Assembly: GCA_040768125.1 (NCBI GenBank)
Contig: JAXGNG010000003.1
Coordinates: forward strand, 476,408 to 540,407
Length of the DNA stretch: 64,000 bases
Source: Spirochaetota bacterium
GTDB taxonomy: Bacteria; Spirochaetota; UBA4802; UBA5550
Direction: 5' to 3'
The position numbers were made by a program, and so were the translations under genes. The notes under the pieces were generated by a model. It was not told the DNA's origin. It did not search any database and saw only the letters and a list, made by a program, of their open reading frames with translations. This document shows, in pieces, positions 5,440-24,000 of this stretch; the first letter of the stretch is position 1, and every line of letters begins with the position of its first letter.

Positions 5440-6549
5440 ATGAGACAAAAAATGCGTTTTAAAAGTGGGATATATTCCAAACGTAAAATATATGCCGTGG
5501 ACCTCTTTTGCGGAGCTGGTGGATTGACAAACGGCCTTGAAAAATCCGGTATCGATGTTCGACTCGGTGTCGATATCGATCCCGCATGTGAATATCCTTA
5601 TTCGGCAAATAACAAGGCAGATTTTCTACTTAAATCGGTCGAAGAGCTCGAAACCCGAGATTTTAAAACTGCATTCCGGAAAAATGGCATATGTCTTTTG
5701 GCAGGATGTGCACCTTGTCAAACCTTTTCAAAATATAACCAGAAGGCAACCCCGGAAGATAAACGCTGGTGGTTGCTACTTCAATTCTCTCGTCTTGTTA
5801 AGGAACTCTCTCCCGAGTTGGTGACAATGGAAAATGTACCTGGACTCGTTGAAAGGGATGTGTTCAAAAAATTTATTGGTGTTCTAAAAAGAACTAATTA
5901 TTATTTGAGTATTACAATAGTCAATTGTGAGGATTATGGTGTTCCTCAACATAGACAGAGGCTAGTTCTATTGGCATCGAAACTTGCACCTATTAGTTTG
6001 TTGTCTCCTGTTGAATTCGGGGCTGATCGCATAACTGTTCGTGAAAGTATCGAGAATTTGCCACGATTGAGGGCTGGTGAGACTCATGGGGACGATCCAC
6101 TGCATCAGGTTTCGACATTATCAGAAATCAACATGAAACGTATCAAGGCATCACGGCCTGGTGGGACATGGAATGATTGGGATAAGAAATTGGTTGCCGA
6201 TTGTCACAAGAAGAGAAAAGGAAAAACATATCAAAGTGTATATGGGCGTATGTGTTGGGACGAGCCAGCTCCTACAATAACAACGCAATTCTTCGGATTC
6301 GGGAATGGACGTTTTGGGCATCCTCGGCAAAATCGTGCCATCTCGTTGCGAGAAGGTGCAATTCTCCAGAGTTTTCCGAAGAATTATGAATTCGCACCTC
6401 CAGGACAACTCATTTACAAAAAAGCGGTTGGTAGGCTTATTGGCAATGCAGTGCCACCAAAACTCGGAGAAGTGATCGGTCTCAGTATTGTAAATCATGT
6501 CGAAGCATGGATAAAAATGAGAACCCATAAAAAAAGCAATGCAAAGTGA
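5440..6549 (+). CDS. dcm: DNA (cytosine-5) methyltransferase (DrmMII-like)
   Basis: Motif I DLFCGAGG, motif IV GCAPCQ, motif VI ENVPG, motif VIII QHRQR, and motif X IGNAVPP. Confidence 0.92.
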   Translation: MRQKMRFKSGIYSKRKIYAVDLFCGAGGLTNGLEKSGIDVRLGVDIDPACEYPYSANNKADFLLKSVEELETRDFKTAFRKNGICLLAGCAPCQTFSKYNQKATPEDKRWWLLLQFSRLVKELSPELVTMENVPGLVERDVFKKFIGVLKRTNYYLSITIVNCEDYGVPQHRQRLVLLASKLAPISLLSPVEFGADRITVRESIENLPRLRAGETHGDDPLHQVSTLSEINMKRIKASRPGGTWNDWDKKLVADCHKKRKGKTYQSVYGRMCWDEPAPTITTQFFGFGNGRFGHPRQNRAISLREGAILQSFPKNYEFAPPGQLIYKKAVGRLIGNAVPPKLGEVIGLSIVNHVEAWIKMRTHKKSNAK

Positions 6550-9500
6550 AATACCTGAAGATATCGGTTTTGAATCTGAAGATTATCGACGGCATCGTAT
6601 TGTTCCTGAACCGGGACAGCTGGTCGAAGTAAGACGACGCCAGTGGATTGTTGGTGATGTACAAGCATCTGCTATATCGTCATCGGGAAATGGGAGGCAG
6701 CATCTAGTTACACTGACCGCCCTAGATGAAGATTCTCTCGGAGAAAGTGTGCAAGTCTTGTGGGAATTGGAACCAGGGGCTCATATACTGGAAAGAGCGG
6801 GTCTTCCGAAAATCACCGGTTGGGACAATTCTGAAAAACTCGAAGCTTTTCTCGATGCAGTTCGCTGGGGAGCCGCTACAAATGCAGATAGGTCTTTTAT
6901 TCAGTCACCGTTCCGTAGTGGAATCACAATTGAAGACTATCAACTCGATCCTCTCGTCCGTGCAATCGACATGGCGCGAGTCAATCTGCTGATCGCCGAT
7001 GACGTAGGATTGGGAAAGACCATCGAAGCGGGTCTGGTGATTCAGGAACTTCTTGTGCGTCACCGAGCGAGATCCGTAATGATCGTCTGTCCCGCGTCTC
7101 TGCAGGTCAAATGGCGGACAGAGATGCAGGAGAAGTTCGGTCTCGAATTTCGTATTGTCGATACGGATTACGTCAAGACACTTCGGCGGGAACGTGGGAT
7201 ACACGCCAATCCGTGGACATCTTTTCCGCGACTCGTCTCATCCATGGACTGGATGAAATCCGGGGAGGGTCTGCGTTTGCTTAAAGATATATTGCCTCCT
7301 CACATGACTTATCCACGAAAATTCGACATTCTCGTGGTCGACGAGGCCCATAATGTCGCTCCTGCCGCAGCGACAAGGTACGCCCTGGAAAGCCAGCGTA
7401 CCCGATTGATCCGCACCTTGGCTCCCCATTTTTCTCATCGTCTGTTTCTAAGCGCAACACCACACAACGGGTATCAAGAATCATTCACATCCCTTCTGGA
7501 ACTACTCGACGATCAACGTTTTGCACGGTCCGTGATGCCTGATGAAAGGCAACTCAATCGGGTCATGGTCAGAAGAATGAAGAGCGACATTGTCGATGCC
7601 GACGGCCAGCCGGTTTTCCCGATCCGACGGCTTCAATGTATAGAAATCGCCTATTCGGATGAAGAACAAAACATCCATCGCTTGCTACACGATTTTACGG
7701 CCGCAAGAACCAGCAGTGTCAAGGGAACGCGGTACGAGTTCGGCACCGACTTTGTACATATGCTGTTGAAGAAGAGATTATTCTCGTCTCCGATGGCTTT
7801 CGCTATTACATTAGCGAAACACAGAGATACTCTGTTGAGAGGTCGCCCCAAGACCGTCTCGTCGTTGGACGAAAGAATACTCCGCAGGGCGATCGTTCGA
7901 AGCGAGGAAGAGTACTCCGACGAATCGAAGGTGGAAGAGGCCCAGATCGAAGCAGTCGAATTGGCGAGCGAGATGGCCGTAGCGCTCGGTGAAACGGAAC
8001 GTGCTATGCTTGACCGGCTCTCCGATTGGGCTGAAAAATATAGAAACCGGGTGGACGCGAAGGCCAATGCCATTCTCCATTGGCTCGAAACCTATCTGAA
8101 ACCTGAAGGACACTGGAACGAAAAAAGAGTCATTCTCTTCACCGAGTATCGTGCTACCCATATCTGGCTTCATCAGATTCTCACGGCCAATGGTTACGGA
8201 GGGGATCGTCTCGCCATCCTGCATGGAAGCATGCGCCCAGACGAACGCGAAGCTGTCAAGGCTGCCTTTCAAACACATCCGATCGTAGCCCCAGTTCGGA
8301 TTCTGTTGGCGACCGATGCCGCATCGGAAGGAATCGATCTCCAAAACCATTGCAACTACTTGATCCATATCGAAATTCCCTGGAATCCCAACGTGATGGA
8401 GCAGCGTAACGGAAGGATCGATCGTCACGGTCAGAGACAGAAGGAAGTTTTTATCTGGCATCCTGTGAGCAAGGGATTCGATCCAAGTGTAATATCTAGA
8501 CACCGGAAGTTAGGTGAAATAGAAGGGGATCACGAGTACCTAATGAGGGCCGTTTTAAAAGTGGATACAATACGGGAGGATTTGGGCAGTGTGGGTCCCG
8601 TCATTGCAAGCCAGATAGAAGAGGCCATGCACGGAAGACGGACCAATCTGGATACCAGTGCCGCCGAGGAGAAAGCGGCGAAAGCGCGTCGTTTTATCGC
8701 TGCAGAGCGAAAGCTTCAGGAAAAAATCGCACGTCTACACGATAAACTCGTTGAGGCGAAGACAGATTTTCATCTCGCCCCGGAAAATGTGCATCGTGCA
8801 GTCGAGATCGGCCTCGAGCTCGCCGAGAAGCCACCACTGAAATGCTTTTCTATTTCGGATATTCCTGACGGCAAGGTATTCGAAGTGCCGGTTTTGCCCG
8901 GCTCATGGGGACGAGCGACCATCGGACTCGAACACCCTCATACTGGAGTACGACGTCCAATCACATTCGATCACGAAGTGGCGAAGTCGCGTGACGATGT
9001 GGTTTTGGTTCATCTCGAACACAAGTTGGTTCAGATGAGCCTCCGTTTGTTGCGTGAAGAAATCTGGAAACTTGATGATGTCAAATTACTACATCGAGTT
9101 GCCGTTCGAGCAGTTCCTGACGATGAACTCGATTTGCCTATGGTAGCCATCTGGTCGCGCCTAGTCGTGACAGGCGGTGGCCACCATCGACTACACGAGG
9201 AATTGACTCTCTCTGGTGGTGATCTTGAACACAAGTCTTTCAGAAGGATCACACAGGTGAGTAAACTCGAAGAACTCGTGGGCAAGGCCATGCCTACTGC
9301 TCTCGATAATGATCTCTTCGAAATCCTCAAGGACAGATTCGATAGTCACGAGAAAGCGATCCTGGCAGCTGTGGAGGCCCGTTCTCGTGATCGTTTGAAA
9401 TACCTGGAGAACACGCTGAATCGTCGAAAAGAAAGCGAGATCGCCGATCTAACGGCCGTTCTTGATGATCTGGCAAAGAGCATCCGGAAAGAACTCACAG

Positions 9501-9718
9501 ATTCCAGTCTGCAAACCGTGCAATTGACAATCTGGCCAGAGGACGAGCGCAACCAATTGAAGCAGGATATCGAGGCGTTGAAAGCCAGACTCGCCCGTAT
9601 TCCTGAAGAGGAGAAAAACGAGGTTACTGCAATCGAGAGCAGCTATGCCAATCCCACTGCCCGAACGTTTCCCGTCGCCATTCTTTTTATAGTGCCAATT
9701 TCGTGGAGTGGAAAATAA
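6539..9718 (+). CDS. drmD: DISARM SNF2-like helicase DrmD
   Basis: PEPGQLVEVRRRQW N-terminus, LIADDVGLGKT, VVDEAH, LSATPHNG, ATDAASEGIDLQ and EQRNGRIDR. Overlaps the dcm stop. Confidence 0.92.
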   Translation: MQSEIPEDIGFESEDYRRHRIVPEPGQLVEVRRRQWIVGDVQASAISSSGNGRQHLVTLTALDEDSLGESVQVLWELEPGAHILERAGLPKITGWDNSEKLEAFLDAVRWGAATNADRSFIQSPFRSGITIEDYQLDPLVRAIDMARVNLLIADDVGLGKTIEAGLVIQELLVRHRARSVMIVCPASLQVKWRTEMQEKFGLEFRIVDTDYVKTLRRERGIHANPWTSFPRLVSSMDWMKSGEGLRLLKDILPPHMTYPRKFDILVVDEAHNVAPAAATRYALESQRTRLIRTLAPHFSHRLFLSATPHNGYQESFTSLLELLDDQRFARSVMPDERQLNRVMVRRMKSDIVDADGQPVFPIRRLQCIEIAYSDEEQNIHRLLHDFTAARTSSVKGTRYEFGTDFVHMLLKKRLFSSPMAFAITLAKHRDTLLRGRPKTVSSLDERILRRAIVRSEEEYSDESKVEEAQIEAVELASEMAVALGETERAMLDRLSDWAEKYRNRVDAKANAILHWLETYLKPEGHWNEKRVILFTEYRATHIWLHQILTANGYGGDRLAILHGSMRPDEREAVKAAFQTHPIVAPVRILLATDAASEGIDLQNHCNYLIHIEIPWNPNVMEQRNGRIDRHGQRQKEVFIWHPVSKGFDPSVISRHRKLGEIEGDHEYLMRAVLKVDTIREDLGSVGPVIASQIEEAMHGRRTNLDTSAAEEKAAKARRFIAAERKLQEKIARLHDKLVEAKTDFHLAPENVHRAVEIGLELAEKPPLKCFSISDIPDGKVFEVPVLPGSWGRATIGLEHPHTGVRRPITFDHEVAKSRDDVVLVHLEHKLVQMSLRLLREEIWKLDDVKLLHRVAVRAVPDDELDLPMVAIWSRLVVTGGGHHRLHEELTLSGGDLEHKSFRRITQVSKLEELVGKAMPTALDNDLFEILKDRFDSHEKAILAAVEARSRDRLKYLENTLNRRKESEIADLTAVLDDLAKSIRKELTDSSLQTVQLTIWPEDERNQLKQDIEALKARLARIPEEEKNEVTAIESSYANPTARTFPVAILFIVPISWSGK

Positions 9719-9720
9719 CG

Positions 9721-10344
9721 ATGAAATGGCAAGAATACCAAAATGCGGTTTCTGTTTTCTATGAACAATTGGAAGGATTCGGTGATGTTCGTCACAATTT
9801 ATTCTTGCCTGATGTTGTCACGGGACAACGAAGACAAATTGATGTTATGATAGAACTGAACGAGCGTGGACACTCGCTCAAGATGCTCGTTGATGCAAAA
9901 TTTCACGCCACCCCACTTGATGTGAAGGATATCGAAGAGGTCTTTTCACTTTCTAAAGCAGTCGGTGCTAATAAGGCAGTCATTGTTGCAGCGAATGGGT
10001 ATACAGAACCTGCAATGGTCAAGGCTAAGTTCCTTCAGTGTGACCTGATGACCCTCACTCTCGAAGAAGCGTTGGATCTTGTTGTTCCTGACAAATGGAA
10101 AATGTGCCCTATTTGTAACACCGATTGTATCGTTCTTGATCAGAATGGAATGATTCAACTTGGAAATGGACTGGTCTTGTGGTGGTTGGCAGGCCAATGT
10201 CGTGAATGTAAGTGTGCACGTGTTCACTGCCAAGATTGTGGCATGAAAATGTTCATTGAAATTGGCAGATCCATGGAGTGCGGATGCGGCCATGAATGGT
10301 CAAGTACATCTGAAGGCGTATCCATCGACTTATTTCAAAAATAA
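9721..10344 (+). CDS. Mrr-family restriction endonuclease with C-terminal Cys-rich zinc-ribbon domain
   Basis: RQIDVMI...VDAKF...KAVIVAANGYT is Mrr_cat-like; CPIC, CREC, CQDC and CGCG follow. Confidence 0.75.
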   Translation: MKWQEYQNAVSVFYEQLEGFGDVRHNLFLPDVVTGQRRQIDVMIELNERGHSLKMLVDAKFHATPLDVKDIEEVFSLSKAVGANKAVIVAANGYTEPAMVKAKFLQCDLMTLTLEEALDLVVPDKWKMCPICNTDCIVLDQNGMIQLGNGLVLWWLAGQCRECKCARVHCQDCGMKMFIEIGRSMECGCGHEWSSTSEGVSIDLFQK

Positions 10345-10352
10345 CCATAATA

Positions 10353-13300
10353 ATGAAAAAAATATCACAGCATACGGAGTGGCTTTCCCTAATCGAGTTG
10401 TCTGGGCCATTTCTCGCCATACCGATCCTGGAGAAGATATATCCACAGGGTTTGGATGTGATAGAGACTCCCAAACGGCAACGTCTTCGTGCAGCATATG
10501 ACGAATGGTGCGAAGCAGTCGAGAACGAAGACCCATTACTTCCCGAGCTCCATCGCGAGTGGATTCGACTCGTGTTCACGGAAATTCTCGAATACGACGA
10601 ATCGACATTGAAGTCGGATGCGGAGAGTGGCAAATCCTACGCTACGACTTCTCCAGAACGAACCGAGACTTTCGTGCCAGACTGGTTGATTGTATCGCCT
10701 ACTGACAACATTCCTCATCTTTTCGTTTCCATCCAACCTCCAGAAACCGATTTCGATAGGGTACACAAGGATGACAGATGGCCAGCGTCACTCGTCGAAC
10801 GCATGACGGCACTCTGCCGAGCATACAATGTTCGTTTGGGGATGATCACCGACGGAGAACGGTGGATGCTGGTAAACGCTCCGGTGGGAGGGACATCGAG
10901 CGACGCTTCGTGGTACGCCCGCCTTTGGTTCCATGAGCCGGTCACTCTCAAGGCATTCCAATCGCTATGGAGCGTGAGGCGTTGTTTCGGCCCATCGGAC
11001 GAGACCTTGGAATCCTTGCTGGATAGATCGCTCGAACATAACGAGGAGATCACTGACACCCTAGGCGAGCAGGTCCGTCGTGCGGTAGAGGTTCTGGTCC
11101 AGTGTTTGGACAAGGCCGATGCGGATCGCAACAGGGAGTTGCTCCGGGATGTCACGCCTGCCGAGCTCTACGAAGCCGGGCTGACCGTGATGATGCGCCT
11201 GGTATTCGTTCTTTGCGCCGAAGAGCGCGGACTTTTATTGTTTGGTGATCCCGTCTATGATGAGTGTTATGCGGTGTCCACTCTGCGATCGCAACTCGCC
11301 GAGGAAGCCGATCGCCATGGCAATGAAGTGCTTGATCGTCGGCACGATGCATGGGCTCGACTCCTATCGGTGTTCAGGGCCGTCTATGGCGGGATCGAAC
11401 ACGAATCACTGCGAATGCCCGCATTGGGGGGGTCCTTGTTCGATCCGGATCGGTTTCCATTCCTGGAAGGTCGGCTCAAGGGGACGAACTGGCGCGATTC
11501 GGATGCCATCCCTCTTCCAATAGACAACAGGACGGTTCTACTTCTCTTGAATTCGCTTCAATTGCTCGAACAACATGGGGGGGCCCTGTTACTGTCCTAC
11601 CGTGCGCTTGATGTCGAACAGATCGGCCATGTCTACGAAGGTCTTCTCGAGTACACCGTCGTTCGTGTGCCATCCGTGACCATAGGACTGATAGGTTCCA
11701 AAAAAGCAAAAAATTCGAATCTCGCTCTTTCCGAGCTCGAATCGGCATGTATGGACGGAGTAGACAACCTCGTTACATTGGTGAAGACAACTACCGACCG
11801 CAGTGAGTCGGCCATTCGCAGTGCGTTGGCTCGACCAGTCGAAGACGCTGATTTGGGATGCCTGCTCGCCGTATGTGGGGGAGACATGCCTCTCGTCGAA
11901 CGTATCCATCCGTTCGTCAACCTGATCCGAACTGACGCATGGGACGATCCTATCATCTATCGTGAAGGAGCCTTCATGGTCACGCTGGGAGCCGTTAGAC
12001 GTGAGACAGGCACGCACTATACACCGAAATCGTTAACAGAAAGCATCGTCGAAACAACGCTGGAACCGGTCGTCTACGTTGGGCCGTCTGAAGGAAAGCC
12101 ACGTGATGAGTGGAAACTGAAAACTCCTACCGAGTTGCTGGACCTCAAGATTTGCGATCCCGCAATGGGGTCCGGAGCGTTCCTCGTACAGGCATGCCGA
12201 TGGCTCGCCGAGAGGTTGGTCGAGACCTGGGCGATTCAAGAGGCAAAAGGTGGATTCATCAATGCCGATGGTGAAGTCATGCCGTCGGCCGGCGGAGCTG
12301 ACCCCATTCCCGGCAGTATGTACGAACGCCTGTCAATTGCAAGACGTCTGATTGCCGAACGATGTCTTTATGGTGTGGATGTGAATCCATTCGCCGTCGA
12401 ACTCGCCAAGCTTTCAATCTGGTTGGTTACTCTGGCCAAAGGTCGCCCCTTCGGGTTCCTCGACCACAATCTGCGTCATGGAGACAGTCTCCTGGGCATT
12501 TATCGGTTGGATCAACTCACAAAATTCGAACCAAATCCAGTGGACGAGAACTACCAGCAGCGTATTTTCGGCCAAAAAGTGACCGGTATGGTAGCCGAAG
12601 CTCTGGAAATCAGGAAGCGACTTCGTTCCGTTCCGATTCGGGACATCCGCGATGTCGAAGCCATGGCGGCTCTCAATTTTCAGGCCGAGGCGAAGCTGGA
12701 GACTTCGGAACGTCTCGCAGATGCTTTCATGGGTATAGTGCTAGCCAGTGACCACGATAGCGCTGTCCGATCGCGGATGGATTCCCTAGCGGTCGTGGCG
12801 GACCGCGCGGTGGAAGGTGATACGGAGACTCTCGCCTCCATCAATCGTATGGCTGCACTTGATCTCGCCAAAGGCGTGCTCGACCATCGTCATCGCAGGC
12901 CGTTCCATTGGCCGCTTGAGTTCCCAGAGGTCTTCGTCCGTTCTGACAGCGGCTTCGATGCCTTCATCGGGAATCCGCCCTTCTTAGGCAACAGGCTTTG
13001 GAAAGGAACACATGGGCCAGCCCTCCAGCGTATCGTTCAAATGATACTCGAAGCGTCTCCTGGAAAGGTCGATCTTTGCGTCGCCTTCCATAGAAGGGCA
13101 GCTACTCTCCTGAAGAGCGGCGGGTCATATGGCCTTTTGGCCACGAGCAATATCGCCGAAGGTAGTGCTCTCTCTGTCGGTCTTGAGCGAATTGCAGTCC
13201 TAGGTGATTTTTACTTCACACGCAAGGGAATACCGTGGCCTGGAACAGCCTCGACGGTAGTCGCCATTGTGTGCTTCTGGAAGGGGACTTGGACAGGATT

Positions 13301-14381
13301 ACGCGACTGTGATGGTGAAGCTTGTGAGAAAATCAGCCCTCGACTCCAACCGGAAATTGCCGAGGGCTGGGAACCAAAGGTTCTTGAGGACGCCATGTTC
13401 ACTTTTGCCGGGGTCGACAACAGTAAGGGACTTGCTTTCGTCGTTACGGAACAGCATCCGTGGTTCGAGCGACTACGCTTGGAACGGGGATCGCTGCTGC
13501 GTCCCTATGTCACCGGAGATGACATCACTAGATCGTCACTTACGCGTATCGAACGATGGGCTCTGGACATTGCTGACATGCCCTTGGATATAATCGCAAA
13601 GAATTGGCCCATCGCTTACCGCTTTCTCACTGAGACTGTGAAACCGACTAGGACCCCGGAAGCTTTGAAGAGCTATAATGGGTTGATTAACAGATGGTGG
13701 CAGTTCTGGAACCACCGGGCGGACCAGATGAGGAGGCTCCGTCGACAGAAGAAATGCGTGGCCTTTGCCAAGGCCGCAAAGTATCCCATCTGTATTGTCG
13801 CTCCAACAGACTGGATTTACACGAATATGGTCACGTTGGTCGAGTCAACACGTGAAGACACCCTTGCAATCTGCCTGAGTTCGATGTTACAGGCTTGGCT
13901 ACGCAATTACTCTGTTCGCAGTCTCGGTCGTGATAACAAGACTATGAGGCTATCGATTAGTGAAGCTTTCACTACATTCCCGCTTCCTGACCAGCCGATC
14001 GCGATTGAGGGTGTCGATGCTGCCGAAGAGTTCCTGACCAATCTCGTCTCCTGGAGTAAACGTAAATCAGCCGGAATGACCGATGCGATGAACGCCGTAC
14101 ACTCACCAAAGACAACTGACGGTGAGATCATCCGATTGCGCGAACTATTGGAGCGTATTGATACAGCAGTCGCAAGCGCGTATGACTGGTCTTGTCTGGA
14201 CCTGTCTCACGATTTTCGCGAAGAGATGGACCCAGATGGCGGTACCATCGTTCGGCATGGTCTAGCAAGAACCATGTACGATCTGGTACTGTCTAATCTG
14301 ATCATTCTGAACCGTTCTATATATCAGGCAAGCGATCATTCGGGATTAGAGACCTGCAGATGGAACGCCAAAAAAGATTAG
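10353..14381 (+). CDS. drmMI: DISARM N6-adenine methyltransferase DrmMI, copy 1 (type IIG-like; MmeI/type IIL-like TRD)
   Basis: GTHYTPK, ICDPAMGSGAFL, FHWPLEFPEVF and FIGNPPFLG; C-terminal RWWQF...EAFTTFPLP. Confidence 0.88.
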   Translation: MKKISQHTEWLSLIELSGPFLAIPILEKIYPQGLDVIETPKRQRLRAAYDEWCEAVENEDPLLPELHREWIRLVFTEILEYDESTLKSDAESGKSYATTSPERTETFVPDWLIVSPTDNIPHLFVSIQPPETDFDRVHKDDRWPASLVERMTALCRAYNVRLGMITDGERWMLVNAPVGGTSSDASWYARLWFHEPVTLKAFQSLWSVRRCFGPSDETLESLLDRSLEHNEEITDTLGEQVRRAVEVLVQCLDKADADRNRELLRDVTPAELYEAGLTVMMRLVFVLCAEERGLLLFGDPVYDECYAVSTLRSQLAEEADRHGNEVLDRRHDAWARLLSVFRAVYGGIEHESLRMPALGGSLFDPDRFPFLEGRLKGTNWRDSDAIPLPIDNRTVLLLLNSLQLLEQHGGALLLSYRALDVEQIGHVYEGLLEYTVVRVPSVTIGLIGSKKAKNSNLALSELESACMDGVDNLVTLVKTTTDRSESAIRSALARPVEDADLGCLLAVCGGDMPLVERIHPFVNLIRTDAWDDPIIYREGAFMVTLGAVRRETGTHYTPKSLTESIVETTLEPVVYVGPSEGKPRDEWKLKTPTELLDLKICDPAMGSGAFLVQACRWLAERLVETWAIQEAKGGFINADGEVMPSAGGADPIPGSMYERLSIARRLIAERCLYGVDVNPFAVELAKLSIWLVTLAKGRPFGFLDHNLRHGDSLLGIYRLDQLTKFEPNPVDENYQQRIFGQKVTGMVAEALEIRKRLRSVPIRDIRDVEAMAALNFQAEAKLETSERLADAFMGIVLASDHDSAVRSRMDSLAVVADRAVEGDTETLASINRMAALDLAKGVLDHRHRRPFHWPLEFPEVFVRSDSGFDAFIGNPPFLGNRLWKGTHGPALQRIVQMILEASPGKVDLCVAFHRRAATLLKSGGSYGLLATSNIAEGSALSVGLERIAVLGDFYFTRKGIPWPGTASTVVAIVCFWKGTWTGLRDCDGEACEKISPRLQPEIAEGWEPKVLEDAMFTFAGVDNSKGLAFVVTEQHPWFERLRLERGSLLRPYVTGDDITRSSLTRIERWALDIADMPLDIIAKNWPIAYRFLTETVKPTRTPEALKSYNGLINRWWQFWNHRADQMRRLRRQKKCVAFAKAAKYPICIVAPTDWIYTNMVTLVESTREDTLAICLSSMLQAWLRNYSVRSLGRDNKTMRLSISEAFTTFPLPDQPIAIEGVDAAEEFLTNLVSWSKRKSAGMTDAMNAVHSPKTTDGEIIRLRELLERIDTAVASAYDWSCLDLSHDFREEMDPDGGTIVRHGLARTMYDLVLSNLIILNRSIYQASDHSGLETCRWNAKKD
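10371..12518 (+). repeat. Copy 1 of a ~2.1 kb imperfect direct repeat (drmMI N-terminal part)
   Basis: Colinear with 17181-19328 at a constant 6810-nt offset at the positions checked. Includes an 83-nt perfect match (11055-11137 = 17865-17947). Confidence 0.92.
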
Positions 14382-14491
14382 ACTCGACGTTGTGTATCCA
14401 GACAATTTAGTCCGGTTTTCGATACTCCGAAGACGGATGAAACGGCGGCTGTTGTCACACAAGCGAAAACTTCCTTGCGGAGGCAGAAACA

Positions 14492-15916
14492 ATGACAAGA
14501 CTATCCGGTGATGTAGCACAAGCTAGCCCAACGAAACAGTTCTTCGTGTCGATGCTGACACGAGACATCACCCTCGCCGATGCAATTCTCGATCTGGTCG
14601 ACAATTGCCTTGACGGTTCCCTTCGAGTGGCGGGTGGTAAACGGGTCGATTACTCGAAACATTTTGTGAAGATTGAGATTGCAGTTGATCACTTTTCGAT
14701 AGAAGACAACTGTGGTGGGATTCCGCGCGACGTCGCGAAAAATTATGCATTCAAGATGGGGCGCGAGCCTGATGACGACCGCGATTCAGATACCGAAACC
14801 ATTGGCATGTACGGTGTCGGTATGAAACGTGCAATCTTCAAGATGGGGCGTAACGCGCTAGTGAGGACGAGGTGCGACCATGATACGTTCGAAGTGCCGA
14901 TCACATCAGAATGGCTTGATGCCAAGAACTGGGACCCTCTACCGATCAACGAATTAACTGGAGCAAATAAGGAACTCAATGAACCGGGGACTATAATCTT
15001 TGTCAACGATCTCTATGAAGGTGTCTCAAGACACTTTTCTAATGCGGCTTTTGAGAATGAGGTACGTACTGCCATCTCCGAGCATTTTACGATGTTTCTC
15101 CAATGGGGTTTGAAGGTGGAACTCAATGGCACACCCATAGAGTCGGTCCGCGTCGAAGTGCTCGTTTCAATGGGCGAAAATCGCCCTGCACCGTTCATAT
15201 ACCAGAAGATGATCGACGATGTTCTCGTCTCCATCGCGGTTGGCTTGAACACTGGCAAGAGCCTCGGCAACGAGGATGAGGATGAGGGTGATTATGGTTT
15301 CGAAAGAGATCGTTCGTCGGTGACGGCTGGTTGGACGGTGTTCTGCAACGACCGTGCCGTCATCGTTGGTGACAAGAGCCGCCTCACGGGGTGGGGCGAC
15401 GGTATTCCACTCTATCATGCGCAATTTGCAATCATAACGGGCATCATTGAGTTTCGTTCGAAACATGCCGAAAAGCTCCCAGTTACGACAACGAAGCGTG
15501 CACTCGACACGTCGTCAAACGTCTGGCTCGAGTCACTTGTAAAGATGAAAGAGGGCATGAGAATCTGGATCTCATACACGAACCAGTGGAAGAACCATCC
15601 ACGGGCGGATCAGTCGAGCTACTGGGAAGATGCTCGGCCGATGTCCTTAAGCGTGGCCATCAAGAAAGTCGCTTCACGTAAGTCCACAAAGAAAACAGGC
15701 AGCGTTATTGAGTTCAACCCCCAGAAAGCCAAGGTCCTTCCGGAGCCAGAGAACAGGAAGCCATCGTCGAAGAAGATCGTGTTCTCCCGCCCAGTAGAGG
15801 AATTACGTCTTGTCTCAAAGATGCTGTTCGATGACCCAGATGAAAAACCTGGCATTGTCGGCGACAAGTGCTTCGATATGCAGCTCGCGAAGGCCAAGAA
15901 ACGAGGAGCTGAATAA
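14492..15916 (+). CDS. GHKL (MORC/HATPase_c_3-like) ATPase
   Basis: N-box AILDLVDNCLD, G1 IEDNCGGI, G2 IGMYGVGMKRA, and transducer-like CNDR...WG...GII.F. Confidence 0.85.
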   Translation: MTRLSGDVAQASPTKQFFVSMLTRDITLADAILDLVDNCLDGSLRVAGGKRVDYSKHFVKIEIAVDHFSIEDNCGGIPRDVAKNYAFKMGREPDDDRDSDTETIGMYGVGMKRAIFKMGRNALVRTRCDHDTFEVPITSEWLDAKNWDPLPINELTGANKELNEPGTIIFVNDLYEGVSRHFSNAAFENEVRTAISEHFTMFLQWGLKVELNGTPIESVRVEVLVSMGENRPAPFIYQKMIDDVLVSIAVGLNTGKSLGNEDEDEGDYGFERDRSSVTAGWTVFCNDRAVIVGDKSRLTGWGDGIPLYHAQFAIITGIIEFRSKHAEKLPVTTTKRALDTSSNVWLESLVKMKEGMRIWISYTNQWKNHPRADQSSYWEDARPMSLSVAIKKVASRKSTKKTGSVIEFNPQKAKVLPEPENRKPSSKKIVFSRPVEELRLVSKMLFDDPDEKPGIVGDKCFDMQLAKAKKRGAE

Positions 15917-16911
15917 TGAGAACCGTTTTTTCACTACCCTATCAGTTGCGGCCGAACAAGGCTGTAGATAGAGAACTTTTCCTGTCGTTGCTTATGCGGT
16001 TAGCCCCTGCGTTAGCTCTTGAGAAGTACCACTATGTAGGGCTTGGAGGTCCGTTTCTTGAGGACTTCAGGCTGGTCCATGCTAGACTCGGCATCGCGAA
16101 TATGACGTGTATTGAAATCGAAGAGGAAGTGCATAAGCGCCAGCTTTTCAATCGTCCGATCACAACAATAGAGTGCATCCACTCGACGCTTGAGGACTAC
16201 CTCGACGGACAGGACTTCGAAATACCCACCATCATCTGGTTCGACTTTAACGAGCCTAAGGGAATTACAGCGCAGATTGAACGCTTCGCCCACACCATTG
16301 GGACCGTGCCGGTCGGCAGCGTGCTTCGCGTGACGTTGAACGCAAACCCGACATCTCTCGGGAAACCTGATATGATGGAAATATCTGTCGAGGTCGAAGG
16401 AGAGTCTTCCAAGGACCGTGCGGTGAAGCCGACGATCCAAGAGTGGCGCCTCGCGCGATTCAAGGAGCGCCTCGGCGCACTCTTTCCCAACGGCCTCACT
16501 GCCGAAGGAATGAGTTTCAAGACATACGGTCCGAGCCTACTACGTGTTCTCAAGTTGGCAGTAGACAAGGAAATCCTGAGCTATAGTGCCCGCCGAGTCG
16601 TCTGGGCGCTTGCCACTCACTACGCTGACGGCCAACCGATGGTGACTGCTACTCTCGTCGTATGCCATAAAGACGACACCATGATTGAAGAACTGGTTAA
16701 AAGTTGGGAATTCTATACGACAATCGAAACTCCCCATCGTCTCGACTTGCCAGTACTTTCAATTCGGGAGAGACTGACGATGGAGTCAAACGACAACGCC
16801 AAGGTTCACATAGGCTTCGAGCTACCGATCTCCGACATGGGTGAAAACCCATTCGAGGTTTTCAAAAAATTTTATCGCATCTACCCACACTTCTCGAAGG
16901 TCGAGTTCTGA
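15916..16911 (+). CDS. Putative class I SAM-dependent methyltransferase-fold protein (non-canonical; 'O-methyltransferase'-like)
   Basis: PNKAVDRELF N-terminus, YVGLGGPFLED (motif I-like), TCIEIE (motif II-like) and IIWFDF. TAATG coupling to the ATPase. Confidence 0.65.
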   Translation: MRTVFSLPYQLRPNKAVDRELFLSLLMRLAPALALEKYHYVGLGGPFLEDFRLVHARLGIANMTCIEIEEEVHKRQLFNRPITTIECIHSTLEDYLDGQDFEIPTIIWFDFNEPKGITAQIERFAHTIGTVPVGSVLRVTLNANPTSLGKPDMMEISVEVEGESSKDRAVKPTIQEWRLARFKERLGALFPNGLTAEGMSFKTYGPSLLRVLKLAVDKEILSYSARRVVWALATHYADGQPMVTATLVVCHKDDTMIEELVKSWEFYTTIETPHRLDLPVLSIRERLTMESNDNAKVHIGFELPISDMGENPFEVFKKFYRIYPHFSKVEF

Positions 16912-17156
16912 TAAAGAAAAACGATTTGGGAATGGAATGGGATGCAAGAGTATAAGTGCCTGGCTTATTCCGTCTTGGAGACAAGTGATTCTGATCGAAA
17001 AAGGTGATGGCAGGGAGTATCGTAGATTCCGCAGAGAGTGGGTGCCAGAGGGGGCAAGTCTGGTCTTACAAGAGACCCTGAACGATTCGATTGTGTGTTC
17101 CACCACCTCATTGATGCCGATGCCTCAGAAATGCGTTCTATTGAGGTTCTTACCTA

Positions 17157-20100
17157 ATGAAACGATTAACCCTTTCGCGACATACGGAGTGGCTTTCCCT
17201 AATTGAGTTGACCGGTCCTTTCCTCGCAGTACCAGTCTTGGAGAAGGCGTTTCCACAGGGTTTAGACATAATAGAGATACCTAAACGGCAACGCCTCCGT
17301 GCGGCTTATGATGAATGGTGCGAGGCAGTCGAGAACGAAGACCCATTACTTCCCGAGCTCCACCGTGAATGGATTCGACTCGTATTTACGGAAATCCTCG
17401 AATATGATGGTTTGACCTTGAAGACGAATCCAGAGATCATAAAAACTTATTCAGTGACTTCCCCTGAACGAAGCGATGCTTTCGTACCAGATTGGCTAAT
17501 TACATCATCTTCCGACAGCAGACCTCGTTTGTTCATTTCCATCCAGCCTCCGGAAACCGATTTCTATCTAGTTCACAAGAACGACAAATGGCCTGCATCT
17601 CTGATCGAACGTATGATGGCACTCTGCCGAGCACATGCCGTGCGATTGGGGGTGATCACTGACGGCGAACTGTGGATGTTGGTCAATGCACCTGTGGGCG
17701 GGGTGTCGAGCAACGCATCGTGGTACGCCCGCATTTGGTTCCAGGAGCCGATCACCCTCAAGGCTTTCAAATCCCTGTGGAGTGTGAGACGCCTTTTCGG
17801 TCCTTCGGAAGAGACCGTGGAGGCACTACTCGACAGCTCTATGGAATACCACGAAGAGATCACAGACACCCTAGGCGAGCAGGTCCGTCGTGCGGTAGAG
17901 GTTCTGGTCCAGTGTTTGGACAAGGCCGATGCGGATCGCAACAGGGATTTGCTCCGGGATGTCTTGCCAGCCGAGCTCTACGAAGCCGGGCTGACCGTCA
18001 TGATGCGCCTTGTGTTTATTCTATGTGCCGAGGAGCGTGGACTCTTGCTCTCTGGGGATCCAGTCTACGACGAGAGTTATGCCGTGTCCACCCTGAGGGC
18101 ACAGCTCGCCGAAGATGCAGATTGTCATGGTTCCGAGGTGCTCGATCGTCGGCATGACGCATGGGCCCGAGTGCTATCGGTGTTCAGGGCCGTCTATGGC
18201 GGGATCGAACACGAATCGCTGCGGATGCCCCCATTGGGAGGTTCATTGTTCGATCCGGATCGGTTTCCATTCCTGGAAGGTCGGCTCAAGGGGACGAACT
18301 GGCACGATTCGGATGCAATCCCTCTCCCGATAGACAACAGGACGGTTCTACTTCTGTTGAACTCGCTTCAATTGCTCGAACAACACGGGGGAGCCCTTTT
18401 ACTTTCCTATAGGTCCCTAGACGTCGAGCAGATCGGCCATGTCTACGAAGGTCTTCTCGAATACACCGTCGTCCGTGTGCCATCCGTAACCATAGGACTG
18501 ATAGGTTCCAAAAAGGCGAAGAACCCGAATCTCGCTCTTTCCGAGCTCGAATTGGCACGCATGGACGGCGAAGATGCCCTCGTCGCCTTGGTGAAGGAAA
18601 CCACCGAACGCAGCGAGTCGGCCATACGCAATGCTCTGTCGTGTGAAGTCGAAGATGCGATCTTCGGACTCCTGCATGCTGTATGCGGGGGCGACACGAC
18701 ACTTGCGGAGCGAATCCGTCCGTTTGCCAACCTTGTCCGTACCGACGCCTGGGGGGATCCCATAGTCTATCGCGACGGTGCTTTTATGGTCACCATCGGT
18801 TCAGACCGTAGGGAAACGGGCACGCATTATACGCCCAAATCACTCACTGAAAGTATCGTCGAGACGACATTGGAACCGGTCGTCTATGTCGGGCCGTCCG
18901 AAGGAAAGCCACGTGATGGGTGGAAACTGAAAACTCCTGCCGAGTTGCTTGACCTCAAGATCTGCGATCCCGCAATGGGGTCAGGAGCGTTCCTCGTACA
19001 AGCCTGCCGATGGCTCGCTGAACGACTGGTCGAGGCATGGGTCGCCGAGGAGGCAATGGGCAGGTTCGTCAATGACGATGGTGAGGTTTTGCTGTTGGCC
19101 GGTGAATCCGATCCACTGCCTACCGATACTGACTATCGATTGCAAACCGCAAGACGTCTGATAGCCGAACGGTGTCTATATGGTGTGGACATCAATCCCC
19201 TTGCGGTCGAATTGGCCAAACTGTCAATATGGTTGGTGACCCTTGCGAAAGGAAGACCTTTCGGATTTCTTGATCACAACCTGCGATGTGGCGACAGTTT
19301 GCTGGGTATTCACCGACTGGATCAACTTACGTTGTTCAAAATGAATCCGGACGACAGTCCCTGCCAGTTGAGTATATTCGGCAAGAAGGTGGCAGGAACG
19401 GTCATCGAGGCGGAAGAAATCAGGAAGCGATTGCGATCTATCCCGATTCGGGATATGCGCGATATCGATACGATGGCCCATTTAAATGCTGAAATCAGGA
19501 AGAAACTCGGATCCATGGAGCTGGTTGCTGATGCAATGATCGGCGAGGTTCTTCGAGCCAACGGTAAAATGCGTGCCATCGAATCGGCTTTGGATTTCCT
19601 CGAAGTACAGGTAGACGCTTTTCTAAAAGGCGATGTGGAGACGAGGGAAACAATTGCCAAAAAGGCGTGTGAAGCTTTATCAATTGGTTTGTCAGAGGGC
19701 ATGCCCCCAAGAAAACCGTTTCATTGGCCTTTAGAATATCCAGAAATATTTGCATCAAATAATGGAGGATTCGATGTCATATTATGCAATCCACCGTTTG
19801 GAGCTATCAATTATTCAAAAAAATCGATGAGTGACCAATATACAATCCTGATAGAATATTGGAATAATTTCTATTTGTATCATTCAAAACGATTGAATTT
19901 CATGATGCTTTTTCTAGAAAGAATTCTATTCAACTTGTTAAACAAGACTAAACAGAGTTGTATTGGATTGATTTTAGATTTTAACTTTTTTGAGAAGATA
20001 TATGAATTATTGCGGTTGAATATCAATGATAGATATGAATTCAAACATATAGTATTTAATTTGAAATCTTTTTCGAATGTCAATAGCGGTCAATTGATAC

Positions 20101-20966
20101 TGATCCTTGGAGACAAAAAAAATCCTTCAAATGATTCAGAGGTTGTTGTCAGCCAAGGAAACCTGAACATTGATCATTTTTCAGTAAAACAAAGCAATTT
20201 GTTCAAAAAGAGTGTTGAAAAAATAAATTATTATAATTTAAAATATCTCGATAAATATTCTCATTTGGAAAATAATACTCTTTTTGAACCACTGGAGAAT
20301 TTTGTTGAATGTACATATGGAGTTGAATTGGGTGGAAAATCGATAACACATCCTTTGTTTATCTTTAATGAAAGAGCAGGCGATGCTGACTATATTCCTA
20401 TAATTGATCTGAATCAATTCGAAAATTTTTGTGATGTTAAATATCGATTTTATTTAAAATATGACATTGATTTGCAAAATAAAATCAACAAAAAGTATTC
20501 GAAATTGAATGTAGCATTGAGGAATAGATCGATTTGGGGAAATCCTCGCATTATATTGCGACAAAGTTCGAAAAGTCTGTGCGCAACAATCGATTACAAC
20601 GAAAGTGTTACATTGTTGAACGCTTTCCATATTTACAAAAGAACACCTGACACAGTGGATTTATTGTATATATTGGGTTTGTTGACTTCTGATATTATCA
20701 ACGATTATTGTAGTTATTCAGGTATCAACAAAATAGAAAAAGGGAAATTTCCTCAAATTAGAATAGAGAGTCTAAAAAAAATTCCTATTAGAATTATTAG
20801 TCGAGGCACTCCCGAAGAAATTATCTATAAAATGATAATCGAAGATACTGCCAAGATATTAAATATAAAAAAAAATATTGTTCGATCTAGTAATGAATTA
20901 AAAGATGTTGAAGGATTGAAAAATGCTTTAAATTTTAATGTTGAAGAACTATATTCTCGAAAATAA
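17157..20966 (+). CDS. drmMI: DISARM N6-adenine methyltransferase DrmMI, copy 2 (TaqI_C/Eco57I-like TRD)
   Basis: Same N-terminal motifs as copy 1, plus FHWPLEYPEIF and ILCNPPF. AT-rich TRD with PRIILRQ...YILGLLTS...FPQIRIESLKKIPI. Confidence 0.88.
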   Translation: MKRLTLSRHTEWLSLIELTGPFLAVPVLEKAFPQGLDIIEIPKRQRLRAAYDEWCEAVENEDPLLPELHREWIRLVFTEILEYDGLTLKTNPEIIKTYSVTSPERSDAFVPDWLITSSSDSRPRLFISIQPPETDFYLVHKNDKWPASLIERMMALCRAHAVRLGVITDGELWMLVNAPVGGVSSNASWYARIWFQEPITLKAFKSLWSVRRLFGPSEETVEALLDSSMEYHEEITDTLGEQVRRAVEVLVQCLDKADADRNRDLLRDVLPAELYEAGLTVMMRLVFILCAEERGLLLSGDPVYDESYAVSTLRAQLAEDADCHGSEVLDRRHDAWARVLSVFRAVYGGIEHESLRMPPLGGSLFDPDRFPFLEGRLKGTNWHDSDAIPLPIDNRTVLLLLNSLQLLEQHGGALLLSYRSLDVEQIGHVYEGLLEYTVVRVPSVTIGLIGSKKAKNPNLALSELELARMDGEDALVALVKETTERSESAIRNALSCEVEDAIFGLLHAVCGGDTTLAERIRPFANLVRTDAWGDPIVYRDGAFMVTIGSDRRETGTHYTPKSLTESIVETTLEPVVYVGPSEGKPRDGWKLKTPAELLDLKICDPAMGSGAFLVQACRWLAERLVEAWVAEEAMGRFVNDDGEVLLLAGESDPLPTDTDYRLQTARRLIAERCLYGVDINPLAVELAKLSIWLVTLAKGRPFGFLDHNLRCGDSLLGIHRLDQLTLFKMNPDDSPCQLSIFGKKVAGTVIEAEEIRKRLRSIPIRDMRDIDTMAHLNAEIRKKLGSMELVADAMIGEVLRANGKMRAIESALDFLEVQVDAFLKGDVETRETIAKKACEALSIGLSEGMPPRKPFHWPLEYPEIFASNNGGFDVILCNPPFGAINYSKKSMSDQYTILIEYWNNFYLYHSKRLNFMMLFLERILFNLLNKTKQSCIGLILDFNFFEKIYELLRLNINDRYEFKHIVFNLKSFSNVNSGQLILILGDKKNPSNDSEVVVSQGNLNIDHFSVKQSNLFKKSVEKINYYNLKYLDKYSHLENNTLFEPLENFVECTYGVELGGKSITHPLFIFNERAGDADYIPIIDLNQFENFCDVKYRFYLKYDIDLQNKINKKYSKLNVALRNRSIWGNPRIILRQSSKSLCATIDYNESVTLLNAFHIYKRTPDTVDLLYILGLLTSDIINDYCSYSGINKIEKGKFPQIRIESLKKIPIRIISRGTPEEIIYKMIIEDTAKILNIKKNIVRSSNELKDVEGLKNALNFNVEELYSRK
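17181..19328 (+). repeat. Copy 2 of the drmMI direct repeat
   Basis: Counterpart of 10371-12518. Confidence 0.92.
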
Positions 20967-21034
20967 TCGAATCCGAAGAAATCAGAATGGACTTCTCGAT
21001 TCTATTGTGAATTTGATAATTTAAAATCAGGGTT

Positions 21035-24000
21035 ATGATGATGGTTGTTGATAATAGTAGCGTCAGAAACGCATGGGTGATTGATTTAAGAATGGATGCT
21101 AATTTGAATGGATTTCTGATCGAAATTCATGATGAATCGCAAGGTCTTGTCGGAATCCGAGATGGAGATGGTCTGATAATTGTAGATCAAATTGGTAATA
21201 ATCATAATATAATATACTTTGCTCGTGTATACCGCGTAAGGCGTACCCATGATGGAATCGTGCTCCTTCTTGATGGATTGATCCCTGTCACAAGTCCTCG
21301 ACCTATCGATGATTTCGGTATGCAACCATCGACCGTGACAGTTTCACGTCTGGAATGGCCAAGCTTCGTATCGGCACTGAAGCTGGCCTGTGGCATTGAC
21401 TTCTCTGCGTTTCCCGTTTTAGAAGGGAAAACTGCAGTGGAACAGAAATATATCAGGGACCTCCTGCAATGGGCGGTCGAAGATGACTTGCTTGGCCCCG
21501 CGGACGGTCCAGTCGAGGAAATCATAGGGATGAGTGTGCGGGATCGGTATCTAGTCGGCAAGCTAGCTCCACCAGATACACAATTGTCGGACGACCAAGT
21601 TGAGGATCTACCGGATGCAACCACCTCCGATTCCGAAACAAACGATCGTGAGGCAGATGCTTCGACGAGCAACTCGTTGGTGCCCTCGTCTATCGGTTTT
21701 ACCTTCTGCGTGGACGGATTGGCGGAATCCGTTGAGGTTCGTGCGAGTTGGGGAAGATACGAGCGAACGGAGAGTGAGCGTACGACCGACGAAGGGAAAC
21801 CGCTCCGTTGCTGGAAAAGAATACCGTCGGGAGGCATGGCGACCATATCGTTCGATCGAAGAATCGTTACCCCTATAGTCATGGACAGCGCTTGTCCCGA
21901 TGTGTCTGTCCAGGGAACTATCGGCGATTTGCTGCCGAACGGTTATCGACTAGTCACATTATTCCTGGTGAACGATCAGACCAAGCCAGATGAAAACCAG
22001 GATCAGGCGTGGATTTTCCAGCCCGAACTGATTGTCCGAGACCCCCATGGACAATCCATCTTCAGAAAGAGACCTTTTCAATCCGACATCGGTTGGGACG
22101 AGGAGCGAGAAGCGCTGGAGATGATATACCGGCGGAGGGTGGAATTCGCTGTCGGACATGGGGTTTCCGTCCATGCCACACCTTCGTCTGACGATCCTGA
22201 AATGGCGATAGAGGTGCGAACCCGAGTACTTCCGCGTTACGAGGTCGCTGTCACCGAGACGCCCGGGACCTCTCTAGAGGACAGACCAGTCATGAAGCAA
22301 CTTGTCTCGGATGGTTCTCTAGACATGCTACATCTCGCAGAAATGAATCGTGATGGTGTTGTCACCGTTCTTGATGCGTTGGCGAACGATTATGCCGCAT
22401 GGATCGAAGAACAGAGGGCTAGGATAGGAATCGACGTGCAGGGGTACGATTCTTCTGCGATGGCCGCCCTTGAAAGATGTGAATCCATTCTCGAAAGAAT
22501 TCGAGAAGGGATTGGGGTTCTGAAATCGGACGACGCGACCTTCGAAGCGTTTCGTTTCGCCAACCGTTCGATGTCGTCGCAACGTGTACACAGTGTCTAT
22601 TCACTCAAGGTGCGGCGAGGTGAAACCGTCGATCTTTCGAGCGTCGACGTTTCCGAAAACCGCTCGTGGAGACCGTTCCAGTTGGCCTTCATCCTGCTGT
22701 CCATTCCTGCCCTGGCGAATCCAACTCATCGCGATCGGACAGAACCGGTGGAAGGCTATGCCGATCTTCTTTGGTTCCCGACTGGAGGTGGGAAGACCGA
22801 AGCCTACCTCGGAGTGGCCGCTTTCACAATGGCGATCCGTAGATTGCAGGGGCGCCTCGGAGGGTTCGACGGAAGCCGTGGTTTAGCGGTGATTATGCGC
22901 TACACGCTGCGTTTGCTCACTATCCAGCAGTTCCAGAGGGCCACTGCCTTGATGTGTGCCATGGAGGTATTGAGGAGGGCAGATACTGCGAAGTGGGGTA
23001 CCACGCCCTTTACGATTGGACTCTGGGTGGGGCAGCGTGTGACACCAAACACCACCCAGGAAAGCCATGAAGCTATCGAGCGGGAAAGGGACGGGAAATA
23101 CGGAACTGGTTCAACACCTGCACAACTCGTCTTCTGCCCTTGGTGCGGTGCAGAGATCATACCCGGGCGAGACATCAGGGTAGTACGCGAAATCGGTCGG
23201 ACTTTCATCTACTGCGGAGACAAATATGGATCCTGCGAATTCGGGAAGGTAAAATCACCGGAACTCGGTCTACCGGTGCTTGTGGTGGATGACGAGATAT
23301 ACAGACATCCGCCTTCCATGCTGATAGCTACGGTCGATAAGTTCGCTATGATGGCCTGGCGTGGTCAGGTGCGAACGCTGTTCGGAAGGGTCGATACGGA
23401 ATGTCCTCGTCACGGTCTTCTGTGGCCCGGAGCAGATTGTGGCGGAACTCATCGGAAGAAAGGGTCTCTTCCCGCGACAACACCACGACAGGTGATGCCG
23501 ATCCGCCCTCCGGATTTGATCATCCAGGATGAGTTCCATCTCATCAGCGGTCCTTTGGGTACCATGGTCGGTCTTTATGAAACGGCAGTGGACGAGCTTT
23601 CCGGATGGAACCTGGACGGTAAGACCGTGAGGCCCAAAATAATCGCGTCGACCGCAACTGTTCGCAAGGCGGACGAACAAGTCAACAATGTCTTTCTTCG
23701 CCGCGTAGCTGTCTTTCCTCCGCATGGTATCGATGTGGAGGACAATTTCTTTTCAGTGCAGCGTTCGATCGATTTGAAACCAGGACGTCAATACATTGGC
23801 ATATGTTCGCCTGGCAGTTCTCGACCCGCCGTACTCATCCGGGTATACGTGGCGCTACTTACGGCCGCTCAATTCCTGTTCGAAAGATTCGGGCAGGCTG
23901 CCGATCCGTATATGACCTTGGTAGGCTATTTCAATTCGCTACGCGAACTGGGCGGAATGCGTAGGCTCGCCGAAGACGATGTCCAGACCCGCTCCTATCG

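Follow-up and report, generated by a model that had tools for sequence, protein, structure and literature searches.

In the Serratia sp. SCBI class 1 DISARM, unmethylated sites enhance defence, and this holds for the sites of two methylases, DrmMI for N6-methyladenine (m6A, also written 6mA) and DrmMII for 5-methylcytosine (5mC), and no autoimmunity follows when the methylases are lost (Aparicio-Maldonado et al., bioRxiv 10.1101/2021.12.28.474362). Class 1 DISARM drmMI and BREX pglX genes also undergo programmed inversions, a phase variation that has been confirmed by long reads (Milman, Yelin and Kishony 2023, PMC9881135). In the BREX locus of Lacticaseibacillus paracasei Zhang, only pglX gives 6mA, and a second methyltransferase gene is described as regulatory (cited in PMC10164179). 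A further known case is the pEFER BREX island, which carries an embedded type IV restriction gene (PMC8565348). Here we describe a 64,000-nucleotide stretch of contig JAXGNG010000003.1 from a Spirochaetota bacterium (the window), in which one class 1 DISARM operon contains two drmMI genes, drmMI-1 and drmMI-2, with different C-terminal specificity modules. Class 1 DISARM itself is already known (Ofir et al. 2018); the window departs from its canonical single-drmMI layout by having two copies.

The first gene, drmMI-1 (10353-14381, + strand), encodes a full-length canonical DrmMI of 1342 amino acids that matches the PADLOC DrmMI profile PDLC02643 over residues 2-1334 with 1584 bits, as well as the Pfam families Eco57I, MmeI_Mtase and MmeI_TRD. 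Its parts are a DISARM N-terminal region, a methyltransferase N-lobe and, from position 12984 onward, an MmeI-type module comprising the C-lobe and target recognition domain (TRD). The second gene, drmMI-2 (17157-20966, +), lies beyond genes for a GHKL ATPase and a Methyltransf_35 (MT35) protein and encodes 1269 amino acids, with a DrmMI N-terminal part of 880 residues joined at the NPPF motif to a TaqI_C-type C-lobe and TRD (Pfam TaqI_C, E = 7.8e-12); here the PADLOC DrmMI match (1257 bits) covers residues 7-939 only. Both open reading frames (ORFs) are intact, and DPAMGSG (motif I) and NPPF (motif IV) are found in each. The two proteins are 77% identical over 876 amino acids (BLASTP), and the similarity ends exactly at NPPF. 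Although the PADLOC profile REase_MTase_IIG (PDLC03618) matches strongly, the DrmMI profiles score higher, and Pfam finds neither MmeI_N nor any other nuclease domain in either protein.

At the DNA level, blastn aligns 10371-12667 (+) with 17181-19477 (+) as a direct repeat, ungapped over 2301 nucleotides, with 79.8% identity and an offset of 6810 nucleotides, which equals 3 x 2270 and so places the repeats in frame. The shared 2.3 kb codes for the DISARM-specific N-terminal region and the methylase N-lobe up to motif IV. Its longest perfect run measures 83 nucleotides (11055-11137 (+) and 17865-17947) and is longer than any run in 20000 shuffles of the mismatch positions (maximum 77); further perfect runs measure 58, 44, 38 and 32 nucleotides. 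The copies also agree at 27 third codon positions in a row (p = 5e-4). The 64-kb window holds no further drmMI copy, silent cassette or inverted repeat.

Much of this anatomy had been described in an earlier note on the same DNA, which reported about 2.1 kb of colinear similar DNA at an offset of 6810 with an 83-nucleotide perfect match, two intact copies that keep DPAMGSG and NPPF, complete divergence past the catalytic region into unrelated TRDs (MmeI/type IIL-like in copy 1, TaqI_C-like in copy 2), and an arrangement unusual for DISARM. These observations stand, with the shared DNA slightly longer than first estimated and the two TRD types borne out by Pfam matches and by the match of copy 1 to MmeI (5HR4); the recombination switch that the note built on them is not supported.

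The C-terminal module of drmMI-1 matches MmeI_TRD with a score that sits on the Pfam cut-off (27.0 bits), and residues 871-989 match MmeI (5HR4). It is 68% identical to the module of a related protein (P0319), and GC content is 0.55 in the N part of the gene and 0.52 in the C part. The module of drmMI-2 (TRD2; 19800-20966, +) has a GC content of 0.28, and of 0.26 at third codon positions, as against 0.51-0.55 in the rest of the operon, with a sharp fall at NPPF; in composition it is foreign. Only three matches to TRD2 below 1e-30 were found among 1.84 billion representatives, and its nearest relative, a 962-residue Eco57I/TaqI_C enzyme (P0122) that is only 41% identical, has a C-terminal module with which TRD2 aligns colinearly from end to end. 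An AlphaFold2 model of DrmMI-2 residues 540-1269, which is poor (predicted local distance difference test score, pLDDT, 64) and serves as a coarse check, matches CamA, M.BseCI, BrxX and M.TaqI, suggesting with low confidence a gamma-class adenine methyltransferase with a TaqI-like TRD fold.

Low GC content (0.13-0.40 in 60-nucleotide windows) extends over a tract of approximately 19740-21215 that takes in the drmMI-2 module, the 68-nucleotide spacer that follows it and about the first 60 codons of drmA. As for the 5′ end of drmA being a trace of a low-GC DISARM donor, the N-terminus of DrmA is variable in all relatives, and its best matches lie within the same clade.

Exchange of the C-terminal part is not peculiar to the window. 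TaqI_C modules occur in 15 of 120 close DrmMI family members, scattered over a tree of the N-terminal region, and a TaqI_C-type DrmMI is the sole drmMI of an otherwise ordinary DISARM locus (L011). The module type shifts at least 5-10 times on that tree. Moreover, the part of drmMI that follows NPPF has a lower GC content than the N part in all 82 relatives compared (82/82; difference 0.01-0.21), the drmMI-2 gene of the window having the largest difference. Because the drop is found in every relative, it suggests family-wide horizontal turnover of the drmMI specificity module. In class 1 DISARM, the region after motif IV thereby appears to behave as an exchangeable, horizontally moving module.

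Two drmMI genes in one DISARM operon are a rare arrangement. For comparison we used related loci, 5 from a one-genome-per-species scan and 80 of 528 from a metagenome scan. No second match to the DrmMI N-terminal region occurs on any of 92 related stretches, including the 62 loci in which drmMI and drmA are both present, and the 28 plasmid records that match over the full length likewise have one drmMI apiece. Among 5.8 billion clusters DrmMI-2 forms a cluster of one, and a word-based search of these clusters, which gives a weak negative, returned no TRD2-bearing protein besides the query.

Within the shared part of the two genes, the pairwise ratio of nonsynonymous to synonymous divergence (dN/dS) is 0.10-0.13 in every segment; both copies are under purifying selection there. 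A ratio near 0.1 is incompatible with one copy having drifted neutrally for long. Within a set of relatives, identity to one another is 80-93%, but identity to the two window proteins is 76-80%; DrmA and DrmB, by contrast, are as close to these relatives as the relatives are to each other. This comparison suggests moderately faster protein evolution in both DrmMI copies.

We favor, with a probability of roughly 0.58, the view that this is a merged DISARM locus that maintains two full-length DrmMI proteins with different modules and hence a dual specificity. This view draws on the anatomy, rarity and purifying selection described above and on the mosaic history and conversion tracts described below. 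Each predicted DrmMI would write and read its own m6A motif, and both would dock on the same DrmD/DrmABC machinery via the conserved N-terminal 720 residues, giving a system in which two m6A motifs, plus a 5mC mark, would label self and reveal non-self. That one DrmABC machine reads two m6A motifs is plausible. We infer the activity of both enzymes, their two different motifs and their shared effector by analogy, because Serratia DISARM responds to unmethylated sites of two methylases and because BrxX is the site reader of BREX.

Several observations weigh against dual specificity. The stretch is absent from three metatranscriptomes of the same study. No independent contig spans 17075-17117, in the spacer between the MT35 gene and drmMI-2, where linkage is given by the window assembly alone. 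TRD2 is without close homologues by which selection could be gauged, and its unameliorated GC content could mark a recent graft of unproven function; the model of DrmMI-2, as noted, is poor (pLDDT 64). Also, a second methyltransferase copy need not be a second specificity, since the second BREX methyltransferase of L. paracasei Zhang makes no contribution to 6mA (PMC10164179).

The history of the pair is recorded in its divergence and its flanks. Synonymous divergence (dS) between the copies is 0.88 over residues 1-760, compared with about 1.0 to orthologues in other lineages, and over 20 foreign proteins match drmMI-1 as closely as drmMI-2 does, or more closely. The upstream flanks also differ. 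The drmMI-1 gene begins 8 nucleotides after mrr, whereas the 245-nucleotide spacer between the MT35 gene and drmMI-2 contains what is left of the 3′ end of a Schlafen-group-3 (DUF2075) helicase gene (16997-17148, +), a decayed stump with a frameshift and with about 94 nucleotides deleted from its interior. By tblastx, the stump consists of two colinear pieces in different frames that match the end of the gene directly 5′ of drmMI in two related loci, L017 (E = 2e-7) and L056, whose upstream genes are assigned to SLFN-g3_helicase by Pfam. In L006 and L056 an intact Schlafen-group-3 helicase gene separates drmD from drmMI, and L017 has the 3′ end of such a gene at this position. Gaps of similar size between drmD and drmMI are seen in L052, L058, L065, L072 and L091.

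A recent local tandem duplication was considered as the origin of the pair and is ruled out by the dS of about 1, the differing upstream flanks and the helicase stump. Because the stump lies 5′ of drmMI-2 and the foreign module has only 28% GC, a merger of two loci is indicated instead, the most likely origin being that two related DISARM loci recombined. Donor locus A would have had the arrangement mrr-drmMI-GHKL-MT35, and donor locus B a Schlafen-type helicase gene directly 5′ of its drmMI. The drmMI-2 gene would additionally have gained its low-GC C-terminal module from a distant donor.

Trees of successive segments disagree along the gene. In a tree of the whole N-terminal region the two copies are sisters on long branches. 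They are also sisters over residues 1-230 and over residues 231-480, where they are 92% identical. Residues 481-760 yield no supported pairing of the copies, each having its best matches elsewhere (P0274 and P0281, at 83% identity), and for residues 761-877 drmMI-1 groups with a different clade (P0319, L009) and drmMI-2 with the local clade. Identity at synonymous codons between the copies is likewise patchy, reaching 97% for codons 241-280 and 75-82% for codons 321-400, as against 35-43% elsewhere. Over codons 241-280, either copy shares only 66-67% synonymous identity with the orthologue in L005, and orthologues show no such excess. The high-identity patches, including the 83-nucleotide tract, are gene-conversion tracts between co-resident copies.

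Among the alternatives to dual specificity, the one that survives best, which we consider unlikely but deserving of serious weight, is a transitional or partly redundant state in which one copy is inactive, merely regulatory or being lost. The pair would then be a snapshot of TRD-module replacement by acquisition, co-residence and deletion, and the leading candidate for the dispensable copy would be drmMI-2 with its freshly grafted low-GC module, or alternatively drmMI-1 as the superseded gene. Such a history fits the pervasive turnover of TRD modules (the 5-10 or more type shifts on the N-terminal tree and the lower GC content of the C module in 82 of 82 relatives) and the grouping of drmMI-1 residues 761-877 with another clade than the rest of the gene. 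A short-lived state would also be expected to escape sampling, as two copies did in the 62 loci and 28 plasmid records, and there is the precedent of a BREX locus whose second methyltransferase is not the active 6mA enzyme. Redundancy is harder to reconcile with two intact ORFs of 1269 and 1342 codons that retain their catalytic motifs, with a dN/dS near 0.1 in the shared part, or with the differing ages of the conversion tracts and the decay of the helicase stump, which suggest long co-residence. Both copies are, moreover, kept in related strains of other habitats.

A more speculative proposal, to which we assign a small probability, is that the tandem pair acts as a sensor of dual specificity and at the same time displays an intermediate stage on a general route of target-motif renewal in DISARM and perhaps in BREX-like systems. 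A second drmMI with a new module would be captured from another locus, and both copies would temporarily serve one DrmABC machine, so that self-protection would not be lost. The pair would then be reduced to one hybrid gene through homeologous crossing-over, a rare event, within the shared 2.3 kb. At the population level, this route would produce one-way, bet-hedging heterogeneity in specificity.

Lower still we place a working switch, as the earlier note had proposed, in which frequent RecA-mediated deletion of 6.8 kb between the direct repeats would generate subpopulations with a single hybrid DrmMI carrying TRD2. The geometry on which this proposal was founded is real. The repeats are direct, colinear and in frame, and any crossover within them would yield an intact hybrid and delete TRD1 together with the GHKL and MT35 genes. 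The minimal processing segment of Escherichia coli RecA is about 25-30 nucleotides, a length exceeded by the perfect tracts of 83, 58, 44, 38 and 32 nucleotides. Past conversion indicates that the copies do pair, and the loss of methylases from Serratia DISARM without autoimmunity implies that the deletion would be tolerated. However, because the repeats are direct, the event is a one-way deletion, and the excised circle has no replicon. Conversion cannot restore TRD1 or otherwise move TRDs between the copies, because TRD1 has homology on one side only. An identity of 80%, here with a dS of about 1, lowers homologous recombination strongly, cutting RecA-dependent homeologous exchange by orders of magnitude. 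Positions 8000-24000 contain no inverted repeat and the operon has no recombinase gene or invertase, unlike the drmMI inversion loci (PMC9881135).

Metagenomes bear on the switch as well; all DNA runs were examined as Logan contigs at about 5x depth, from which rare variants are dropped. The earlier note had called for a search for reads that connect copy 1 with copy 2; no such joints occur in seven runs, a weak negative at this depth and with assembled contigs. Related strains from three studies retain both copies, and no other TRD2-bearing protein or hybrid appears among the 5.8 billion clusters. One Logan contig of 1011 nucleotides from run X3 carries the letters of copy 1 at 18 of 18 differing sites within 18304-18428 in a copy-2 context, which would count in favour of the switch. 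This mosaic may be a conversion variant or a bubble artefact of a k = 31 de Bruijn graph. Its edges coincide with the shared 58- and 32-nucleotide blocks, as the collapse of a k = 31 bubble would yield, and because these flanking blocks allow such an artefact we rejected the contig as evidence of recombination. A recombination switch is not supported; a crossover could delete the 6.8 kb and leave a hybrid gene, as a rare and irreversible decay rather than a switch.

The weakest rival, and a very improbable one, is that metagenome assembly fused the DISARM loci of two strains into a chimera, a danger already raised in the earlier note: the window does come from low-coverage digester metagenomes, with 17075-17117 the interval bridged by no independent contig, but the drmMI copies are only 80% alike, so that repeat collapse or expansion does not fit, the MT35 gene and the helicase stump share no sequence able to mislead an assembler, depth is even at about 4-5x across the region in runs X1 and X2, per-run Logan contigs confirm the other junctions (19620-20209 across NPPF in drmMI-2, and 20014 to beyond 21500 from TRD2 into drmA), and pieces specific to each drmMI copy co-occur in metagenomes of two other studies, making three in all. 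A 32.9-kb contig of another organism, present at high depth (130-158x) in X1, X3 and X4, has 18-nucleotide matches to 16905-16922 and 17146-17163 that are non-colinear and probably due to chance.

The genes between the two drmMI copies belong to a wider pattern. They encode a GHKL (HATPase_c_3) ATPase (14492-15916, +; Pfam match) and its partner, a putative methyltransferase of the Methyltransf_35 family (PF20553; 15916-16911, +; E = 3.4e-81), and together form an accessory cassette. The same pair lies between drmMI and drmA in L006 (Ralstonia solanacearum), L009 (a metagenome-assembled genome, MAG, of Archangium), L043, L048 and L093, the last being the Microvirga terrae plasmid pR24_2, where the two are annotated ‘ATP-binding protein’ and ‘O-methyltransferase’. 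The pair is also present in L054, L081 and L086. It is 75-85% identical between the window and the Ralstonia, Archangium and other loci, whose DISARM core genes are only 55-57% identical, and the GHKL protein of the window is 85% identical to the R. solanacearum DISARM copy. MT35 has 982 homologues, the best 120 of which are 74-82% identical and are spread across several phyla. The two genes form a highly constrained, mobile cassette. We found no sequence relatives of either protein in the PDB, and no mention in the literature of PF20553 or GHKL inside DISARM.

More than 900 nucleotides are inserted between drmMI and drmA in 35 of the 62 loci, and the inserted genes are always co-directional with the operon. 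Inserts include a GHKL protein of 625-650 residues alone (12 loci), the GHKL and MT35 pair, a PRTase-CE protein with a reverse transcriptase, a Ser/Thr kinase with a 153-residue protein, a KAP NTPase, DUF7380/DUF4209 proteins, and AspBHI-like and DpnII-like nucleases. Because these 35 loci carry co-directional inserts, the drmMI-drmA junction is a variable accessory slot and a hot spot, with accessory defence genes present in more than half of the loci examined. In the window this slot holds the GHKL and MT35 pair plus the second drmMI, which is unique to the window among these loci.

The locus as a whole is a complete class 1 DISARM operon with the order drmMII-drmD-mrr-drmMI-[slot]-drmA-drmB-drmC-vsr, all genes being co-directional. 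PADLOC recovers the five class 1 core genes as well as DrmMII, with drmD and drmMI located 5′ of drmA. A promoter-like site with an 11/12 match (5107-5135) precedes the operon, whose first large gene encodes a drmMII-type C5 cytosine DNA methyltransferase (5431-6549, +; Pfam DNA_methylase E = 8.9e-52, PADLOC DrmMII 289 bits). It is followed by drmD, a full-length SNF2 helicase gene (6539-9718, +; PADLOC DrmD 1478 bits) whose product is 84-87% identical to DrmD of L001, L005 and L013. A small gene with an Mrr_cat nuclease fold (9703-10344, +; Pfam E = 6.6e-7) lies immediately 5′ of drmMI-1 and is an optional DISARM accessory, being found at the equivalent position in L002, L027, L029, L049, L064, L080-L082 and L086. 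Beyond drmMI-2 come drmA (21035-24883, +; PADLOC DrmA 1613 bits), drmB of the DUF1998/MZB type (24880-26730, +; PADLOC DrmB 268 bits, Pfam MZB), the PLD gene drmC (26687-27481, +; PADLOC DrmC 333 bits, Pfam PLDc_2) and, as the last operon gene, vsr (27482-27931, +; Pfam Vsr E = 1.8e-28). Vsr is the usual partner of a C5 methylase, and the gene occupies the equivalent position in L001, L002, L011 and L013.

This order agrees with that of relatives for which the whole locus is available, drmMII-drmD-(mrr)-drmMI-drmA-drmB-drmC-vsr, each with a single drmMI. The nearest loci are from MAGs labelled Syntrophobacteraceae, Deltaproteobacteria, Nitrospiraceae and Bacteroidales, along with many metagenome contigs. 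Other defence genes stand beside the operon. Upstream (451-4929) are genes for a GmrSD-like and a DUF2779 protein, along with a sequence that weakly matches a methyl-directed nuclease, and downstream (28037-34901) is a ZacABC-like/PDC-M27 triad of an unknown protein, a PLD protein and an SF2 helicase.

If both methylases are active, this would be, to our knowledge, the first DISARM to read two adenine motifs, three marks in all with 5mC, and phage escape by loss of sites would become harder. The pair would also offer a natural test of whether class 1 DISARM senses its sites through DrmMI, in the way that BREX uses BrxX. Like Serratia DISARM, the operon has drmD, drmMI, drmA, drmB and drmC together with the C5 methylase gene drmMII. 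Whereas the Serratia system has one DrmMI, with the motif ACACAG, and one DrmMII, the window has two DrmMI paralogues, a DrmMII and the GHKL and MT35 pair.

The two DrmMI proteins also resemble MmeI-family type IIL/IIG enzymes (5HR4), as gamma-class N6-adenine methylases whose target is set by a C-terminal TRD and whose members differ mainly there. In that family, specificity is reportedly modular and swappable (Morgan et al. and Callahan et al.). Type IIG/IIL enzymes of the MmeI kind have a PD-ExK nuclease domain at the N-terminus of the methylase, and no such domain is found by Pfam in the DrmMI proteins, which have instead a long DISARM-specific N-terminal region and are embedded in a helicase/PLD operon.

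In L. paracasei Zhang BREX, as in the window, a defence locus has two PglX-like methylase genes; the window differs in that both copies are full length, carry catalytic motifs and are under purifying selection. As in BREX islands (PMC8565348), a methylation-based defence operon of several genes houses unrelated accessory genes at a fixed intergenic position, although the slot here is the drmMI-drmA junction and includes a second drmMI in the window only. Finally, the window and the drmMI/pglX inversion loci (PMC9881135) have in common that the specificity end is diversified when it recombines with another copy, of partial homology, within the locus. The inversion loci rely on inverted repeats; the extra copies in them are usually partial and silent, a recombinase is often close by, and they switch reversibly with one variant expressed per cell. 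The window instead has direct repeats, no recombinase gene in the operon and two complete, co-directional genes, and because both genes are complete and co-directional, the two drmMI variants can be expressed together.

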